Positions 48,951-58,315 of a stretch of 64,000 nucleotides of DNA are shown in pieces (positions within the stretch are counted from its first letter, which is position 1; every line of letters begins with the position of its first letter). The translations under genes and the position numbers were made by a program. The notes beneath the pieces were generated by a model. It saw only the letters and a program-made list of their open reading frames with translations, was not told the origin of the DNA and ran no database searches. The DNA is from Candidatus Latescibacterota bacterium (GTDB lineage Bacteria; Latescibacterota; CBDEFO01): assembly GCA_965248755.1 (NCBI GenBank), contig OZ252149.1, positions 2,144,001 through 2,208,000 of the forward strand, given 5' to 3'.

Positions 48951-49280
48951 TTGAGAAGGGAGGTCAAGGTGTCGAGCCCCGAAGTGAAAGATGGTAAGCG
49001 CTGGACGGCGACCCGTAAGGGAGAGATTGTGTTGGCTCTTTTGAGAGGAGCAGATCTATCTGAGGTGTGTCGTAAGAATGGAATTAGCCAGTCGCAGGCG
49101 TATGCTTGGCGTGATAGTTTCTTAGAAGGGGGCCAGGAGAGTCTGAAGTCTCGGCGTGGTCGCAAGGATCCGAAGGAGCGAGAGGTTAGCCGGTTGGAGC
49201 GCAAGGTAGGGCAGTTGACGCTCCAGTTGGAGATACTCGAAGAGGTAGCCCGTCTAAAAAAAACGAAGCGGTTGCCTTGA
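48951..49280 (+). CDS. IS3 transposase OrfA (HTH)
   Basis: RWTATRKGEIVLALLRG..EVCRKNGIS; an A8 run at 49256-49263 is the likely -1 frameshift site. Confidence 0.85.
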   Translation: MRREVKVSSPEVKDGKRWTATRKGEIVLALLRGADLSEVCRKNGISQSQAYAWRDSFLEGGQESLKSRRGRKDPKEREVSRLERKVGQLTLQLEILEEVARLKKTKRLP

Positions 49281-50140
49281 GTGGGCGGTTTTTGGGTCGA
49301 GGCTATTCCCGCAAGGTGGTAGCTTTGGCTTTGGGTTTGCATCGTTCGACTCTGTATAGGTTTAGGGATAGAGGTGTCAGTTCTTCTGTTAAAGAGCCTG
49401 TGATAGATGAGGAGCTTGCTTTTCGTATTCGAGGGATACTGGACCAAGAAGAGGCATTTGGTCACAGGCGGGTTTGGGCGCATCTTCGTTTCAAGGAAGG
49501 GGAATGTGTCAACGTTAAGAAGGTTCATAGGATAATGAAGCTTAAGGGGTGGCAGTGTAAGCTGTGGAATCGTCCCGGGAGAAAGGGGCCACAGGTTGCC
49601 CAGAAGCGTTCTGTGGTGGATAGTCCCGACAGTTTGTGGTCGAGTGACTTGACAAAGATTTACTGTGGAAAAGATGGTTGGTGTCCTCTTATTGCGGTGG
49701 TGGACAACGGAAGCCGGGAGGTTCCTGGGTATCGTTTTAGTCGAAAAGGGAGGGCACTGGAGGCCACAGATGCCCTGGATCGGGCCGTGATCTCTCGATA
49801 CACTTCCAAGGAGGCTGTCCCCCAGGGTCTCACTTTGCGCTCTGACAATGGTTCCATCTTTTTGGCTCGGGCCTATTTGGCCAGTACCGAATATTGGGGA
49901 ATTCGTCAGGAATACATACCAAGTGGTAAACCCGATTGGAACGGTGTTGTAGAGCGTTTTTTCAGGACCCTCAAGCAAGAGTGTGTTTGGCTTCACAAGT
50001 TTGAATCCTTTGAACAGGCTGAGAAGATCATATCTCAGTGGATCGATAATTACAACAAGAACAGGCTTCATTCATCCCTGGGATATAAGACCCCAAAAGA
50101 GTGGAGAAAACAATTTTATCTACTACCCCAGGTTGCTTAA
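49277..50140 (+). CDS. IS3 transposase OrfB (DDE integrase core)
   Basis: WSSDLT, LRSDNGSIF, NGVVERFFRTLKQE and RLHSSLGYKTP. Confidence 0.92.
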   Translation: MSGRFLGRGYSRKVVALALGLHRSTLYRFRDRGVSSSVKEPVIDEELAFRIRGILDQEEAFGHRRVWAHLRFKEGECVNVKKVHRIMKLKGWQCKLWNRPGRKGPQVAQKRSVVDSPDSLWSSDLTKIYCGKDGWCPLIAVVDNGSREVPGYRFSRKGRALEATDALDRAVISRYTSKEAVPQGLTLRSDNGSIFLARAYLASTEYWGIRQEYIPSGKPDWNGVVERFFRTLKQECVWLHKFESFEQAEKIISQWIDNYNKNRLHSSLGYKTPKEWRKQFYLLPQVA

Positions 50141-50989: not shown

Positions 50990-51378
50990 ACTTATGATCG
51001 TGCAGGACATTTTAGACAAAAAGTTTGGCGATAGAAATGGAAGAGCGGGAATAAACCGAACCCGTTTTTCTGAGCACGAAATTGGACAAGTAAAGCAAGT
51101 TTTTCGCGTTGCTTGTACAGACTACCCGACTTGACAGTCTTACCTTTCTGTTATTGGGAATACGTATTCTACCAAATCGAGTGGTGCAAGATGACCTATT
51201 TCTAAATTACAGCTCTAAAGATACAAGGTTTATTTGACATAACAGCCCCCGTGGAGACTCATTTTGAGCTCTTGTCGACTTTAAGAAGTTGTTAAGCTAT
51301 GTGTCCAATTTGGATTTTCTGGGGTACACGTTACTGTTTTGGGAGAAGAGCCATCCGTTACGTGAAGGAGGATAAAAC

Positions 51379-51809
51379 ATGGCAACCGACTTCAAGATGC
51401 TGAACATGATAAGAAAGATCCCCATGTTTGGGGAACTTTCTGTGGATGAGGCAAAACTCGTGCTGAGCGCATGCCAGCAGAAGGACTATGAACCCAATGA
51501 GGTGATATTCAAATACGGGGGAGGCAGCAGTGAGATGTTGATCCTCATGTCGGGAAAACTGGACGTAAGGGGGCCTAGCGACGATCTTAACATAGCTGAA
51601 ATTAACCCTGGCAAATGGTAGGGGAAATGGACGTCCTCACGGGAAAGATCAGGTCAGCGACGGTAGTTTCTTCAGAAAAGTCAATAGCACTGAGCTTGAA
51701 CACCGCGGAGTTCGACAGACTGCTCAGAAAATACCACTATATAGGTCTCAAGATGTTAAGAAATGTTATAAACGATCTCTCTGTAAAGACCAGAATAAGC
51801 AATTCCTGA
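51379..51809 (+). pseudogene. Frameshifted cNMP-binding domain gene, inverted duplicate of 53993..54631
   Basis: Near-identical N-terminus; 1-nt loss near 51612 splits it into 51379..51621 and 51615..51809. Confidence 0.85.
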
Positions 51810-52365: not shown

Positions 52366-52421
52366 TTGGTTTCAAGTCTCCTCTACCAGAATTTTCCCCC
52401 TCTACTATAGCATGCTTGTCA

Positions 52422-52450
52422 AATATAATAACAATCCCCGTAATCTGCAA
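52422..52450 (-). promoter_or_regulatory. Putative sigma70 promoter of secG
   Basis: TTGCAG-N17-TATATT on the minus strand. Confidence 0.5.
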
Positions 52451-52516
52451 GCCATTTTTCAGAAGGGAGCCTGCTAACGTAGCAGAGAGCATACAGGGTT
52501 GGGGGCCAGCGCCCTG

Positions 52517-52536
52517 CCCCGATTGAAGTATCGGGG
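52517..52536. repeat. REP-like palindrome
   Basis: CCCCGATTGAAGTATCGGGG, downstream of gap. Confidence 0.7.
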
Positions 52537-52558
52537 CTTTCTAAAGATTGCTAGTTTA

Positions 52559-53557
52559 CTAATCGGCCATCAATTTTATGAGCTCACTGCATCTGTTGGC
52601 ATAGCCCCACTCATTGTCATACCATCCTATTACCTTAACCAGGTTGTCCTCTACAACACAGGTCGAAAGGGCATCAAAGATGCAGGAAGCTGGATCGCCT
52701 ATAATATCAGCTAAGACTATCGGCTCCTCGCTGTAAAAAAGATACCCCATCAGGCTGCCTGCTTGGGAGGCCGCCTTGAATGCCTCATTGACCTCATCTG
52801 TGGTGGCGTTCTTTTTCAACTCCGCTACAAGATCTGTCAGAGATCCGTTAGGAGTGGGGACCCTCACAGACATTCCGTTCAATTTTCCGTTCAGCTCGGG
52901 TATGACCTTACCGACAGCTACCGCGGCGCCTGTGGTAGTCGGGATCATCGAGACTGCGGATGCTCTGGCTCTCCTTAAATCCTTATGCGGTTGATCCACA
53001 ACTGCCTGATCGTTTGTGTAGGAATGAATCGTGGTCATCAATCCTTTCCGAACTCCGAAGTTATCGTTTAGGACCTTCACCATAGGAGCAAGGCAGTTGG
53101 TGGTGCAAGAGGCGTTGGATACTATCGTATATTCGGGTTTGAGCGCAGAGTCGTTCACACCCAGAACTATGGTAACGTCTTCACCCTTGGCCGGAGCCGA
53201 TATGAGGACTTTCTTTGCGCCTGCTTTCAGATGCCCTGATGTCTTTTCTCTTTCTGTGAAGAGGCCAGTGGATTCAAGGACTACATCCACGCCCAGATCT
53301 CCCCAGGGGAGGTTGGCCGGATCCCTTTCGGACAAGACCTTGATCTCAGCCCCATCCACGACGATAGCGCCGTCCTTGGGTTCGATCGAACCTGGGTATT
53401 TGCCGTGCACTGAATCGTATCTCAAAAGATGAGCCAAAGTATGGGCATCAGTTATATCGTTCACAGCAAGGACATCGCACCCTCCCTGTTCCATCGCTGC
53501 CCTGAAGACCAATCTTCCGATCCTTCCAAATCCGTTAATTCCCACCCTCACTGCCAT
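52559..53557 (-). CDS. gap: Glyceraldehyde-3-phosphate dehydrogenase, type I
   Basis: GINGFGRIGR, SNASCTTNCL and WYDNEWGY; start at 53557 after AAGGAGG. Confidence 0.97.
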   Translation of the reverse strand: MAVRVGINGFGRIGRLVFRAAMEQGGCDVLAVNDITDAHTLAHLLRYDSVHGKYPGSIEPKDGAIVVDGAEIKVLSERDPANLPWGDLGVDVVLESTGLFTEREKTSGHLKAGAKKVLISAPAKGEDVTIVLGVNDSALKPEYTIVSNASCTTNCLAPMVKVLNDNFGVRKGLMTTIHSYTNDQAVVDQPHKDLRRARASAVSMIPTTTGAAVAVGKVIPELNGKLNGMSVRVPTPNGSLTDLVAELKKNATTDEVNEAFKAASQAGSLMGYLFYSEEPIVLADIIGDPASCIFDALSTCVVEDNLVKVIGWYDNEWGYANRCSELIKLMAD

Positions 53558-53996
53558 TTTCATCCTCCTTCTGACTTTCATCCTCCTTCTCACTGAAGGA
53601 CCAATCTTCCACTTTAATGTCCTTAACCTGACTGAAGTTGCCGACCTTTTGTGTGACCAGAACAAAATCCATAGATAAGGCTATGCTGATCACCCTTAAA
53701 TCTCTCTCAGGCAGTGTTGCTCCCGCAAATTTTAAGGACGCCCATATCTTCCCGTACTGATCCGCTGCAGAAAGGTCAAAAGGCAAAACACCGACATCCT
53801 CCAAAAAGTTTTCTACCTGACTCAGACGCTGTTCTTTGTTGGTACTTGCAGCATTGGCAACAGACAAAAGCTCTGCCGCTGTTATTACCGACGTGGTGAT
53901 CCTATCGTCTTTTGCCAGGGCCTTAATCTTTGAGATAATGTCTTCGTTTTTCCTCAAAATCTCAACACATATGTCTGTATCCAGAAGATAGCTCAC
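53535..53996 (-). CDS. PIN-domain (VapC-like) ribonuclease
   Basis: YLLDTD, SVITAAEL, LPFD and ERDL motifs; GTG start overlaps the upstream TGA. Confidence 0.88.
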   Translation of the reverse strand: MSYLLDTDICVEILRKNEDIISKIKALAKDDRITTSVITAAELLSVANAASTNKEQRLSQVENFLEDVGVLPFDLSAADQYGKIWASLKFAGATLPERDLRVISIALSMDFVLVTQKVGNFSQVKDIKVEDWSFSEKEDESQKEDENGSEGGN

Positions 53997-54631
53997 TCCT
54001 CGTGACTCCTCCTTTGGCTTCTCCTTGTAGTCTGGATATCTGCCTCAGCAGACTCCCCACATACTTCCTTCAAAACCGCATCCAGGTCCTGACTCTCCTC
54101 CCAGATGCCGGCGTGTTCCAACAAGAGAGCACTAGAGCACCCCATAGTGCTCGAGTCTACGATGTTGCTCAACTGCTCCATCTTTTTGGTGCTTCCCTCT
54201 AAATTGACATTGCCTGTCTTGATCTTGTCAGACAGATCGTCCACAATATTCTTGAATATCTTCAGACCTATCTTCTGAAATTTTCTAAGCAACCTGTCGA
54301 ACTCGGCGGTGTTCAAGCTCAGCGCCATCGACTTTCCTAAAGCAACTACGGTAGCTGACCTGATCTTTCCCGTGAGGACACCCATTTCCCCTACCAGTTG
54401 TCCAGGTTTGATCTGAGCTACGCTGACACCGCCGAGGGACCTTACGTCCAGTTCACCAGACATCAGAATCAACATCTCCCTGCTGCCTCCCCCGTACTTG
54501 AATATCACCTCATTGGGCTCATACTCCTTCTGCTGGCATGCGCTCAGCACCAGCTTTGCCTCATCCACTGAGAGTTCCCCGAACATGGGGATCTTCCTCA
54601 GTATGTTCAGCATCTTGAAGTCGGTTGCCAT
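53993..54631 (-). CDS. cNMP-binding domain protein with a C-terminal antitoxin-like extension
   Basis: LRKIPMFGELS, ILMSGELDV and GEMGVL...RSATV; no Crp HTH; tail ALLLEHAGIWEESQDLDAVLKEV. Confidence 0.85.
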   Translation of the reverse strand: MATDFKMLNILRKIPMFGELSVDEAKLVLSACQQKEYEPNEVIFKYGGGSREMLILMSGELDVRSLGGVSVAQIKPGQLVGEMGVLTGKIRSATVVALGKSMALSLNTAEFDRLLRKFQKIGLKIFKNIVDDLSDKIKTGNVNLEGSTKKMEQLSNIVDSSTMGCSSALLLEHAGIWEESQDLDAVLKEVCGESAEADIQTTRRSQRRSHEE

Positions 54632-54644
54632 GTCTTATCCTCCT

Positions 54645-55529
54645 TCACGTAACGGATGGCTCTTTTGCTGAGACACCCAGGCCGAATATGGCAAAGTCGT
54701 ACTTTACAGGATCGTCTTTATCGAACTTCCTCAGGCTATCTGTGATGTCCTCGGCGGTTTTCCAGTCGTTTGATTTGCGCTCAGTCAATTTGAACTTCCT
54801 GGAGAGCCTGGACACATGCACGTCCAGCGGGATGACCAGCATCCTTGTCGGAACTTCTCTCCATAAGCCGATATCAACAGAGTCCGATCTGACCATCCAC
54901 CTCAGATACATATTCAGCCTTTTACATGCGCTGCCCCCGCCCGGAGAAGGGATCAGTGCTTTGACCCTTTGGGGAATCTCATCCGTCTCTGGGAGTGGAT
55001 CCAGATTATAGATGTTCTGGACGAATCTCGTTAAAGCCGGCCTGATCGTCCCATCTGAGAGATCGAGCCCTCTGAGAAAGAGTTCTTTTATGGACCCGTA
55101 TTTTTCTATGACCTGTTTCAAAAGATATATCACACACGCCACGTCGTCGCCCAATATCATTCGATACGCAAAATGAGAAAAGCCTTTAAAACGCTCGAGA
55201 TCTCTTTTTGGATCAAAATTGGCTACGAACTTGTAAGGTCTATCTTCCATTTGTCTGAATATCTTCTCCAAGCTTGAAAGTATGTTAGTCCTCCTGCCCT
55301 GAGCCATAATAGAGGCAATCATCCCGGCGACTTCACGATCTCTATCGTCTGAGTATCTGTGCACGAATTTGACCGGATCGTTCGGTATGAAATCCGGCGT
55401 GTTGTACTTTTCAAAGAGCAAGTCCAAGGACTTCTTCAGTTCTATGTCGGAGTCCGAAAGGTCAAACGTAGACTCCGTTACGGTTTTTCTATCTGCATTT
55501 TCAAATAGATCTATCTCATCAAAGGTCAT
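54645..55529 (-). CDS. TIGR02757/DUF2400 family protein
   Basis: DPVKFVHRY, SACKRLNMYLRWMVR, IPLDVHV and DPVKYDFAIF. Confidence 0.88.
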   Translation of the reverse strand: MTFDEIDLFENADRKTVTESTFDLSDSDIELKKSLDLLFEKYNTPDFIPNDPVKFVHRYSDDRDREVAGMIASIMAQGRRTNILSSLEKIFRQMEDRPYKFVANFDPKRDLERFKGFSHFAYRMILGDDVACVIYLLKQVIEKYGSIKELFLRGLDLSDGTIRPALTRFVQNIYNLDPLPETDEIPQRVKALIPSPGGGSACKRLNMYLRWMVRSDSVDIGLWREVPTRMLVIPLDVHVSRLSRKFKLTERKSNDWKTAEDITDSLRKFDKDDPVKYDFAIFGLGVSAKEPSVT

Positions 55530-55547: not shown

Positions 55548-56087
55548 TCAATTCATCAGGCTCTTAACCCTTAGTATAGCCCATTTAGCTTCAGGGTAGT
55601 CATAATTTGCAGTTAGAGCTTCCTCGTAAGCTTTCTTGTACTCCTCAATGGCCTCAAGCCAGGCTCCCTGAAGTTCCAGAATCCTTGCCAAATTGAAGTG
55701 AGGATAGTGATAGCACTCGTATCTTCTGGCTACCATGGCTTTCTTGAGGTAGGGTACAGCTTCATCGAACCTTCCCAACTCGATCAGATAAGCTCCTATA
55801 TCGTTGTAGGGATTACCAAAGTCGGGATCGACTTCTATTGCCTTTTTACACTCCCCTATCGCTTCGTGTAGACTTCCCATAAAACTGTAATTCCACCCCA
55901 GGAACGTATGCGCCTCTCCGGTGGGATAAAAGTCTATGGATTGCTCGTAGTACTTGATCGCTTCCTCAAAATAAATAAGCGCCTCCTCCTCCCTGCCCTC
56001 ACTCTGAGCCTGATGAGCCTGCATCTGAATCTGGTATGCCTTCCTCCAACAATCCTCAGCTTCCTTTTGGACGTCGCTTTTATCCAT
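55548..56087 (-). CDS. TPR-repeat protein
   Basis: EAHTFLGW..AIEVDPDFGNPYNDIGAYL. Confidence 0.85.
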   Translation of the reverse strand: MDKSDVQKEAEDCWRKAYQIQMQAHQAQSEGREEEALIYFEEAIKYYEQSIDFYPTGEAHTFLGWNYSFMGSLHEAIGECKKAIEVDPDFGNPYNDIGAYLIELGRFDEAVPYLKKAMVARRYECYHYPHFNLARILELQGAWLEAIEEYKKAYEEALTANYDYPEAKWAILRVKSLMN

Positions 56088-56289
56088 ATACAGTCGGCAC
56101 CTCCTACACCTGCTTTTTTAAGATACTCAGCGGATTTAGGGAGCTCTATTTCAGGATCGCCCAAGATACGACGTTCCATAGCCATATACTTACCGTAACC
56201 TGTCAAGCTCACATCAACAAAGCCGATTGTAACTCAAATATAAAAATACTGCATTGCGATGTCAACTATATTTTCGATAAAGTGATCTT

Positions 56290-56780: not shown

Positions 56781-57260
56781 TTATGAAACTTGAATCTCTC
56801 CGTTCTCCCTTACTTCTTCCGTCCTTACTGTCCCGAACTTGGACGTGAGCACAGCTCCGAACCCAAGAGCAAGAGCTGCCGATAAGGTAAACCAGCCGAA
56901 ATACGGTATCTGGTGTACGAGGGTCAGGATTATGAGTCCGATCACAAGCTCCAGTATGGGGGACTTCTCTTTTATTTTAAGAGGTATCTCTTTGCCGATT
57001 ACGAGTGTGACAGCTATATATCCGAGGAACATCGCGACAGAAGCTGCAAGTCCGATAAGCGGTAAAAGGGGTATTCCGATTATGGTTATGCCTATGAGCA
57101 CCATAAGAGGACCTATGCAAATCATCCCGCACAGACCTATAAGTACAGACTGCCATAAACTGTTTCGTAAGGTGTAGGATACGTTCTCGACATGTCGTGG
57201 AAGGAAGGTTATAAAGATCGCTCCCAGGGCTATGAGATCCAGGAAAAGTATGAAGTCCAT
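56781..57260 (-). CDS. Membrane protein, truncated tandem duplicate of the C-terminal half of 57329..58315
   Basis: Near-identical TM region; own AAGGAGG RBS. Confidence 0.8.
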   Translation of the reverse strand: MDFILFLDLIALGAIFITFLPRHVENVSYTLRNSLWQSVLIGLCGMICIGPLMVLIGITIIGIPLLPLIGLAASVAMFLGYIAVTLVIGKEIPLKIKEKSPILELVIGLIILTLVHQIPYFGWFTLSAALALGFGAVLTSKFGTVRTEEVRENGEIQVS

Positions 57261-57328
57261 TTTCTCCTCCTTTGTGCAGTAGTTATTTCTAAAAGGCTAA
57301 TGGGTGTTGTGGATTTTGAAAAACGAGT

Positions 57329-58315
57329 CTATGAAGCCTGGGCCTCTCCGTTCTCCCTTACTTTCTCTGTCCTTACTGTCCCGAATTTGGATGTAAGAAC
57401 AGCTCCGAATCCAAGGGCAATAGTCGCTGAGAGGGTGAGCCAACCGAGATACGGTATCTGGTTCACAAGCGCCAGGATTATGGCTCCAATTGCAAGCTCC
57501 AGTATGGGGGACTTCTCTTTTATTTTAAGAGGTATCCCCTTGCCGATTACGAGTGTGACAGCTATGTATCCGAGGAACATAGCGACAAAGGCGGCAAGTC
57601 CGATAAGCGGCACAAGGGGTATTCCGATTATGGTTATGCCTATGAGCACCATAAGAGGACCTACGCATATCAATCCGAACAGACCAATAAGTACAGACTG
57701 CCATATACTGTTTCTTGCGGTATGGGATATGCTCTCGATATGCATGGGAAAGAAGATCATAAGGAGTGCACCCAGGGCTATGACAACCAGGGCGACCGCG
57801 ATCTTGTAAATGATTTTGGCGAAGAAAAGGAAGCCGGAAATCTTATCCCTGACTTCAGGCGTAAATGCGCGCCGTGCTATAGGGGGGAGTATTGCATTTA
57901 AGCCTTGAATGTCCCCCACTTCCATCACGTCTCCACTTATTATTGCCGTGCTGTCAGCTACTATTTGTCCTCCTATTGAGAGTACGTCTTTGACCTCGGC
58001 TCCCGCTTCTAAATAGACATTTCCTCCTATAGCTGCTACATCTTTGGTCTTTCCTGAGACTGTCGCGCTCCCTACGATGGCCACGGCGTTTCTGGTCTGG
58101 CCCTTGACATCAATACTTCCTCCGATAGCCACAGCGTCTTTGGCACTTCCTTTCACTGTTACGGAGCCGCCTATAGCGACTACGTTTTTTACTGTTTCAC
58201 CTTCTTCAACTACTATATTCTGGCCCGATCTTACAATATCCTTGGCGGCGAAGGCCTGAGATGCCATAAGGAATAGAGCTATGGCTAACGTTGTGACGAT
58301 GAAGATCCTTTTCAT
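57329..58315 (-). CDS. Membrane protein with N-terminal beta-helix (bactofilin-like) repeats
   Basis: Signal peptide; repeated VAIGGSV.V.G units; C-terminal TM helices. Confidence 0.8.
   Translation of the reverse strand: MKRIFIVTTLAIALFLMASQAFAAKDIVRSGQNIVVEEGETVKNVVAIGGSVTVKGSAKDAVAIGGSIDVKGQTRNAVAIVGSATVSGKTKDVAAIGGNVYLEAGAEVKDVLSIGGQIVADSTAIISGDVMEVGDIQGLNAILPPIARRAFTPEVRDKISGFLFFAKIIYKIAVALVVIALGALLMIFFPMHIESISHTARNSIWQSVLIGLFGLICVGPLMVLIGITIIGIPLVPLIGLAAFVAMFLGYIAVTLVIGKGIPLKIKEKSPILELAIGAIILALVNQIPYLGWLTLSATIALGFGAVLTSKFGTVRTEKVRENGEAQAS

Follow-up and report, generated by a model that had tools for sequence, protein, structure and literature searches.

It has long been asked what sets off the chromosomal type II toxins. 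In type II VapBC systems, such as H. influenzae VapBC-1 (PDB 6nkl) and R. felis VapBC2 (3zvk), the toxin has a PIN fold, and its coupled upstream partner combines a DNA-binding N-terminus with a C-terminus that wraps into a groove of the toxin. Other systems tie a sensor to a toxic output. For example, Pycsar (PycTIR) fuses a cyclic nucleotide monophosphate (cNMP)-binding domain to the effector and is accompanied by a pyrimidine cyclase, and CapRel has a sensor on the antitoxin side that could release the toxin, although it senses a phage protein within one polypeptide (PMC10118264, in its available part). In ParA-sensor ternary toxin–antitoxin systems, which are predictions, the antitoxin is linked to a third protein, a sensor that could likewise release the toxin (10.64898/2026.10.19.760177, available part). 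Neither CapRel nor the ParA-sensor systems have a cNMP domain fused to a VapB tail in the portions of these sources that were accessible, and the accessible portion of PMC7159879 describes nothing closer. Here, we describe a locus in a 64,000-nucleotide (nt) stretch of a Candidatus Latescibacterota genome (the window), where a 212-amino-acid (aa) protein joins a cNMP-binding domain to an antitoxin-like tail and its gene overlaps that of a VapC-type PIN protein. The fusion architecture is real and was found in one genus only. The reading we favor, to which we give about an even chance, is that a vapBC pair has recently been tamed within this genus alone: the cNMP domain and a long helix would stand in for the DNA-binding module and bind an attenuated VapC constitutively.

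How does this locus compare with described systems? It shares with type II VapBC the PIN fold (template-modeling (TM) scores of 0.90–0.93), a coupled upstream partner and, by prediction, the C-terminal wrap into the toxin groove. It differs in having a cNMP domain instead of the DNA-binding N-terminus, in having K117 and N120 at the fourth catalytic site of the PIN domain, and in its place inside a host operon, without an evident promoter for the pair itself. The locus is VapBC-like but is missing two VapBC features, the DNA-binding domain and the fourth site. A cNMP–antitoxin-tail fusion is apparently undescribed: no cNMP-binding antitoxin was found in the accessible text of the literature covered, which consisted of main texts with few subscription papers among them. 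Like Pycsar, the locus ties a cNMP-binding domain to a toxic output, except that here the sensor is fused to the inhibitor. The PADLOC PycTIR models match aa 25–139, which is the generic cNMP domain only, and no cyclase is present among the scanned neighboring genes (TPR, DUF2400, PIN and gap). Pycsar was rejected on the absence of an adjacent pyrimidine cyclase and on the limited PADLOC match.

The full-length fusion occurs in three sequences: that of the window (P0001; genome G000), that of a second assembly of the same genus (P0116; G001), and that of a third assembly (P0117). It is intact in all three. The frame is open in G001, where the protein is 97% identical, and aa 146–193 are identical throughout. 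In sequencing run X4, from which G001 or the third assembly may have been built, a contig of 2,626 nt spans 52400–54437 with 68 substitutions and no gaps; the tail junction and the gene overlap thus exist in independently assembled short reads. Together with the open copies in G001 and the third assembly, this rules out an assembly artifact. No cNMP–antitoxin fusion was found outside the genus in protein, genome-contig and metagenome-contig searches or in searches of 41 and 168 genomes. In the 41 genomes, aa 1–212 were matched only in G000 and G001, among the matches listed. The tail alone, searched against 168 genomes of the phylum, had a strong match in two; the best match outside the genus (E 0.014) falls in an unrelated open reading frame (ORF), in a different frame, and was discarded. 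The PIN protein has a similarly narrow range. A word-indexed search found three relatives at E 0.001, all of this group; there is one close relative in genome contigs (in G001) and none in metagenome contigs; and PF01850 matches nothing else in G000 or in G001. None of 104 scanned PIN or antitoxin loci has a cNMP domain.

The N-terminal part of the fusion scores 57.6 bits on PF00027 (cut-off 27.5), contains the phosphate-binding G-E...R-S/A signature, and, when its model is compared with known structures, has the fold of CRP/CNG-type domains. No other Pfam family matches the 212-aa protein at E 1. A Crp/Fnr regulator was rejected, since there is no HTH_Crp match and NF008732 scores 19.8 bits against a cut-off of 266; thus, the earlier note was right to describe a cNMP ORF that lacks a Crp-type helix-turn-helix (HTH). 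Modeled alone, the fusion has a confident cNMP domain, a single helix over aa 119–160, and a tail (aa 161–212) with a predicted local distance difference test (pLDDT) score below 50. Low confidence is expected for the free C-terminus of an unbound antitoxin, and the C-helix of CRP-type proteins relays ligand binding. A LuxS match on the tail (16 bits, cut-off 208) was dismissed. The closest relatives of aa 1–145 outside the genus, at no more than 43% identity, are cNMP–coiled coil–receiver proteins of ~325 aa, some labeled Latescibacterota, which share the helix C signature and continue into a receiver domain rather than an antitoxin tail.

Where does the tail begin? The earlier note placed its start near aa 145, where a supposed duplicate cNMP gene at 51379–51809 ends. 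That copy is a pseudogene rather than a gene: a 1-nt deletion at about 51611 ends its ORF at 51621, and its TGA at 51807–51809 is CGA in the intact paralogues, which continue to ...RFFT. The fusion copy is close to its paralogues over aa 1–118 (162 of 180 nt identical over aa 1–60), diverges from about aa 119 (52 of 77 nt identical over aa 119–145), and is from there on more like the cNMP–receiver proteins; one paralogue row, G1_2010, was in the wrong orientation and is left out of this comparison. Divergence from the paralogues has already set in near aa 119, and the antitoxin-like part begins only near aa 160. The stand-alone paralogues in G000 comprise one intact copy (149 aa), one that a transposase splits, and two that are partial. 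Elsewhere in this genome, three blocks consisting of a kinase end, a receiver–HTH gene and a truncated cNMP gene adjoin a DDE_Tnp_1_4 transposase (contig C1 near 1315712, 1792900 and 3748779), which flanks the last block on both sides and seems to have moved host signaling genes. Within the window, a two-ORF insertion sequence (HTH_Tnp_1 and rve; 48951–50140) lies between a hybrid kinase gene and a receiver–HTH gene.

The tail contains the motif quoted in the earlier note, at aa 166–190. Two families of PIN-adjacent proteins share this motif and its place before a PIN gene: one with the consensus S-x-x-x-L-L-x-H-A-G-x-W-x-G-D-D-L...V-Y-x-x-R (the HAG family) and one with W-x-D-x-R-x-x-E-E-I-I. 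Both consist mostly of stand-alone proteins of 50–150 aa, for which an antitoxin role is suggested by position, and neither motif segment has a Pfam match. The HAG motif was searched as a DNA pattern in metagenome contigs. HAGxWxGDD was found at 62 loci. At 45 of them a PIN start lies within 40 nt of the stop, and four of the remaining 17 loci have less than 130 nt of sequence downstream. A profile of 34 distinct HAG segments aligns with aa 166–192 at 13.6 bits, which places the tail second among 84,922 six-frame ORFs (E 0.15), and an hhalign comparison with 22 segments gives 86%, E 4.9e-6 and 47% identity over 30 columns. This match is partly circular because the search pattern shared H-A-G-x-W with the tail; when only positions that the pattern left free are counted, P is 0.017. 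Unlike the HAG family, the tail has neither the GDD nor the Cys, nor the near-invariant Arg seen in 33 of 34 segments, whose position is S194 in the fusion (Pro in its relatives).

The second family was found through the PIN gene. The best outside PIN locus (L028) starts with an identical YLLDTDIC and has the same 4-nt overlap, and the ORFs upstream of PIN in L028, L045, L057 and L064 end in G-x-W-x-D-x-R-x-x-E-E-I-I...R. This motif occurs in 645 clusters at 50% identity. In the best 150 of these, N-termini with a Pfam match are FitA-RHH, Phd/YefM, MazE, DUF2281, RHH or MerR-HTH, most have no match, and none is a cNMP domain. A 150-sequence profile of the family built without the tail gives 3.4 bits on the tail in two pieces (aa 169–178 and 197–209) and 18% by hhalign, and leaves the tail outside the top 12 of 84,922. 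Searches with the tail against Pfam and NCBIfam, the ESM Atlas, short proteins (by word search) and plasmids (E 5–8) returned nothing usable. Pattern scans of viral sequences gave 25 matches, none with PIN downstream, and the partners in five viral PIN loci are ordinary. Three side observations concern these families. First, together (P0121–P0270, L107–L168) they form two large groups of PIN-adjacent C-terminal motifs carried on varied antitoxin N-termini. Second, HAG-family PIN domains have a long basic insertion ahead of the third acidic residue. Third, an antitoxin-like motif lies inside a longer ORF in P0150 (a 355-aa ABC-transporter ATPase) and L156 (a 343-aa frame), possibly other accidental fusions or frameshifts.

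The tail is predicted to bind its cognate PIN. Two PIN domains (aa 1–133) were co-folded with two tails (aa 150–212), each with its own alignment supplied. The ipSAE was 0.84, and the best of three controls reached 0.01. In a benchmark, 116 of 157 solved pairs and 2 of 215 mismatched pairs reach this mark, counts that hold only roughly here because of the supplied alignments and multiple copies. The co-fold runs share at least 73% of contacts, with a partner pLDDT of at least 58. The predicted interface consists of tail aa 160–191 and the N-terminal helices of PIN, including T7 and E42. Since VapBC complexes have been solved and the tail alignment contains homologous segments, the result speaks for likeness and compatibility rather than proving that this particular copy binds. 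Overall, position, a diverged motif match and co-folding support the earlier proposal of an antitoxin tail that has no DNA-binding domain, is fused to a cNMP domain and binds the coupled PIN; the motif match is not significant genome-wide.

The PIN protein is of the VapC type, scoring 51 bits on PF01850 (cut-off 23.6), and its model is standard (pLDDT 95, TM 0.93 to 3zvk). A Diphtheria_C match (E 0.08, under the cut-off) was taken as chance. It falls below the cut-offs of the tRNA(fMet)-specific equivalogs (NF047863, 97.4 against 140 bits; NF010285, 54.6 against 143 bits). D6, T7, E42, D99, T115 and F121 are kept. The suspicion that the last acidic position is degenerate proved correct: the fourth site reads T-Q-K. 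Position 117 is K here and N or D in 24 of 24 relatives; position 120 is N (S in G001) and E in 19 of 24; position 46 is V and G in 24 of 24; position 103 is I and A in 22 of 24. All 29 complete HAG-family PIN domains have D or N at the fourth site. With K117 and N120, this PIN has neither known form of that site, D117 or N117 with E120. It breaks 7 of 23 conserved columns; in a leave-one-out comparison, 13 of the 24 relatives break none. H. influenzae VapC1 is the top PDB match, and its residue numbering agrees. In VapC1, N117I inactivates the toxin, E120G strongly lowers toxicity, N117D compensates, A103V/T was isolated as a loss-of-function change, and weakened mutants are still neutralized by VapB1 (PMC4229260, in the part available). 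The toxin is probably blunted. In the third assembly, the PIN match ends at aa 100 (P0115). In sequencing run X3, one allele departs from the window at 53698, the same break point; an intact allele is also present in that run.

The fusion is under purifying selection, and the neighboring paralogue evolves neutrally. Between G000 and G001, with transitions weighted 3, the ratio of nonsynonymous to synonymous change (pN/pS) is 0.32 for the fusion (8 synonymous, 7 nonsynonymous; P 0.025 against neutrality) and 1.03 for the pseudogene (3 and 9). The tail alone gives 0.34 (2 and 2; P 0.27), and fusion and PIN combined give P 0.008 against neutrality. The background median is 0.30, from 95 of 149 mechanically called ORFs in a 240-kb stretch of G001 that align without gaps and have at least three synonymous changes. 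At aa 97–99, G001 and P0117 agree with the paralogues and G000 differs, so exchange between copies may blur the figures for the cNMP domain. Compared with the third assembly, PIN differs at 11 of 100 aa and the fusion at 4 of 212 (Fisher P 0.001); between G000 and G001, PIN and fusion show no significant gap in divergence (P 0.15). More generally, the high background ratio and many broken paralogues in the compared stretch (C8:560000–800000) hint at relaxed selection in this genus.

The genes lie on the minus strand in the order TPR, DUF2400, fusion, PIN and gap, with secG directly after gap (Table 1). As the earlier note had it, the fusion stop overlaps the GTG start of the VapC-like PIN gene (GTGA). 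The ribosome-binding sites (RBSs) of both genes are strong, with that of PIN inside the coding sequence for the tail end. A separate internal start for the tail (M151 or M163) is unlikely because neither has a well-placed RBS. The 3' end of the PIN ORF covers the first 23 nt of gap; the pair does adjoin gap, as claimed, whereas the proposed housekeeping operon is better described as a mosaic, since gap lies about 1 Mb from pgk-like (~C1:1.19 Mb) and tpiA-like (~1.07 Mb) motifs. No gap, cNMP, PIN or TPR homologue lies within ~1.5 kb of DUF2400 at 15 loci of other genomes. The scan that yielded the candidate operon promoter found nine sigma70-like sites, against a shuffle mean of 5.9. RNA run X12 has contigs on gap and none on the fusion–PIN module, an absence of contig cover that is no evidence in itself. 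In G001, the tandem duplication near the end of PIN carries an identical D-to-N change in both copies. The ~30 nt upstream of the cNMP start are common to most paralogues (window 54631–54661 and 51346–51378); here they encode the last codons of DUF2400, whose end may have been supplied by the incoming cNMP gene. Further away, a membrane-protein gene downstream of an ECF sigma/anti-sigma pair is partly duplicated in tandem (56781–58315; copies at 57329–58315 and 56781–57260).

Table 1. Coordinates in the window of the fusion–PIN locus and its surroundings
Feature	Coordinates	Strand	Basis or remark
Candidate operon promoter, sigma70-like site TTGACA-17-TATATT (11/12 consensus positions)	56237..56265	-	Consensus match only
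TPR protein, first gene of the predicted operon	55548..56087	-	ORF and Pfam/NCBIfam scan
DUF2400/TIGR02757 gene, stop 13 nt ahead of the fusion start	54645..55529	-	ORF and family match
Fusion gene, 212 aa: cNMP-binding domain, long helix, antitoxin-like tail	53993..54631	-	ORF, PF00027, model
PF00027 cNMP-binding domain, aa 35-117; phosphate-binding G81, E82, R91, S92	54281..54529	-	Pfam, residues, fold
Helix, aa 119-160, predicted to run unbroken from cNMP domain to tail	54152..54277	-	Model; differs from stand-alone paralogues, resembles cNMP-receiver proteins
Predicted PIN-binding segment, aa 160-191: L-L-x-H-A-G-x-W ... D-L ... L-x-x-V	54059..54154	-	Motif, hhalign, co-fold
Tail end, aa 192-212, second D-I-x-x-x-R motif (198-203)	53996..54058	-	No confident predicted contacts
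VapC-type PIN gene, 153 aa (domain 1-133)	53535..53996	-	PF01850
18-bp tandem duplication	53558..53594	-	Encodes PIN acidic extension; holds (doubles) the gap RBS
gap (GAPDH)	52559..53557	-	Family match
Frameshifted stand-alone cNMP paralogue (pseudogene), neutral control	51379..51809	+	Paralogue alignment

How might such a pair have arisen? In the history we favor, a vapBC cassette would have landed between DUF2400 and gap in the ancestor of the genus, and a member of the much-duplicated cNMP-domain family would have been fused, in frame, with the 3' half of the antitoxin gene, which encodes the toxin-binding part. The DNA-binding domain of the antitoxin would have gone, and probably also the promoter of the pair; both genes would now be read from the promoter-like site at 56265, without autoregulation. 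The fusion would be translated from its strong RBS and coupled to PIN through GTGA. Its cNMP domain and long helix would form a folded, probably dimerizing N-terminus, and aa 160–191 are predicted to wrap into the VapB groove of PIN. Having lost its fourth catalytic site, PIN would be weakly active or inactive, and may be becoming dispensable. Neutralization would be mostly constitutive, with any effect of cyclic AMP (cAMP) or cyclic GMP (cGMP) secondary.

Several observations weigh against this history. On the side of the sensor, the intact cNMP pocket and four class III cyclase matches in G000 fit a sensing role. On the side of the toxin, the three core acidic residues and T115 are retained, D8 could add charge, and the PIN is open in two of the three assemblies. 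Three of the 24 relatives break 7, 9 and 9 conserved columns, as many as this PIN or more, and PIN.COG1487 members have two to four active-site residues (PMC5499597, whose available part does not mention cNMP). The pN/pS of the PIN domain, 0.48, is distinguishable neither from neutrality (P 0.12) nor from the background (79th percentile). On the side of the tail, the genome-wide match is not significant, and of the profiles built without the tail, A4 has no genome-wide match to it and A9 has no match in G000 or G001 at E 0.5, its other matches being at noise level. The co-fold, too, may reflect likeness to solved VapBC complexes.

The alternative that survives best, although we consider it improbable, is a nucleotide-gated toxin–antitoxin switch. 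Binding of cNMP would shift the C-helix (aa 119–160) and either release or tighten a still-active, perhaps narrowly tRNA-specific VapC, which would tie translation to cAMP or cGMP next to gap. The intact G81, E82, R91 and S92, the copy-specific helix that runs straight from pocket to interface, the cyclases in the genome and the strong RBSs of both genes would all suit such a switch, as would an intact fusion in three of three assemblies while several stand-alone paralogues are broken. Set against it are K117, N120, G46V and A103I in PIN, the interruption of PIN in one lineage, and searches that found neither a second origin nor a deeper relative; moreover, with only 4–9 of 212 aa diverged, selection on the pocket itself could not be discerned, and P0117 has a change at G59. 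The apparently worn active site of PIN makes a tamed pair likelier than a working cAMP-controlled switch. In a related version, which we hold to be similarly doubtful, a second messenger (cAMP, cGMP or another cNMP) would bind the antitoxin itself, and a change passed on by the C-helix directly to the PIN-binding segment would free or clamp a VapC that is deliberately weak.

Quite unlikely is a neutral read-through relic, in which tail and PIN are decaying and have stayed in frame only owing to the polar effect that stops would have on gap, or to the short time elapsed, with selection on the cNMP domain only. Consistent with decay, selection on tail and PIN taken singly is not significant, the near-invariant Arg, the GDD and the Cys of the HAG family are no longer present in the tail, each gene ends in an RBS-rich extension resembling a captured spacer, and transposases and broken paralogues abound in the genome; the strong predicted tail–PIN interface, the identity of aa 146–193 in all three assemblies and the combined P of 0.008 speak against it. 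Least likely, a dead PIN may have been repurposed to bind RNA or protein as the output subunit of the complex, with cNMP binding by the fusion controlling its availability: the PIN fold is intact, its catalytic and neighboring residues are changed alike in G000 and G001 with the frame retained, and changed residues 45, 46 and 85 fall in the predicted interface, but PIN is cut in one lineage and diverging faster than the fusion, and the data suggest no target.

What would the locus mean for the biology of toxin–antitoxin pairs? First, it draws attention to modular PIN-adjacent C-termini that form a large family (645 clusters) with no Pfam model. Second, if gating is true, a small molecule would act directly on toxin release through the fusion, which could also serve as a ready-made part for an RNase under cAMP control; if a second messenger acts on the antitoxin itself, a toxin would have been turned into a tunable, nucleotide-controlled RNase that is co-expressed with GAPDH. 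Third, if gating is false, as the taming of a vapBC pair would have it, the locus would be a snapshot of domestication, with the neighboring pseudogene as its control: the antitoxin would have swapped a domain, autoregulation would have been lost, the toxin's active site would have eroded, and in one lineage the toxin itself has been lost.

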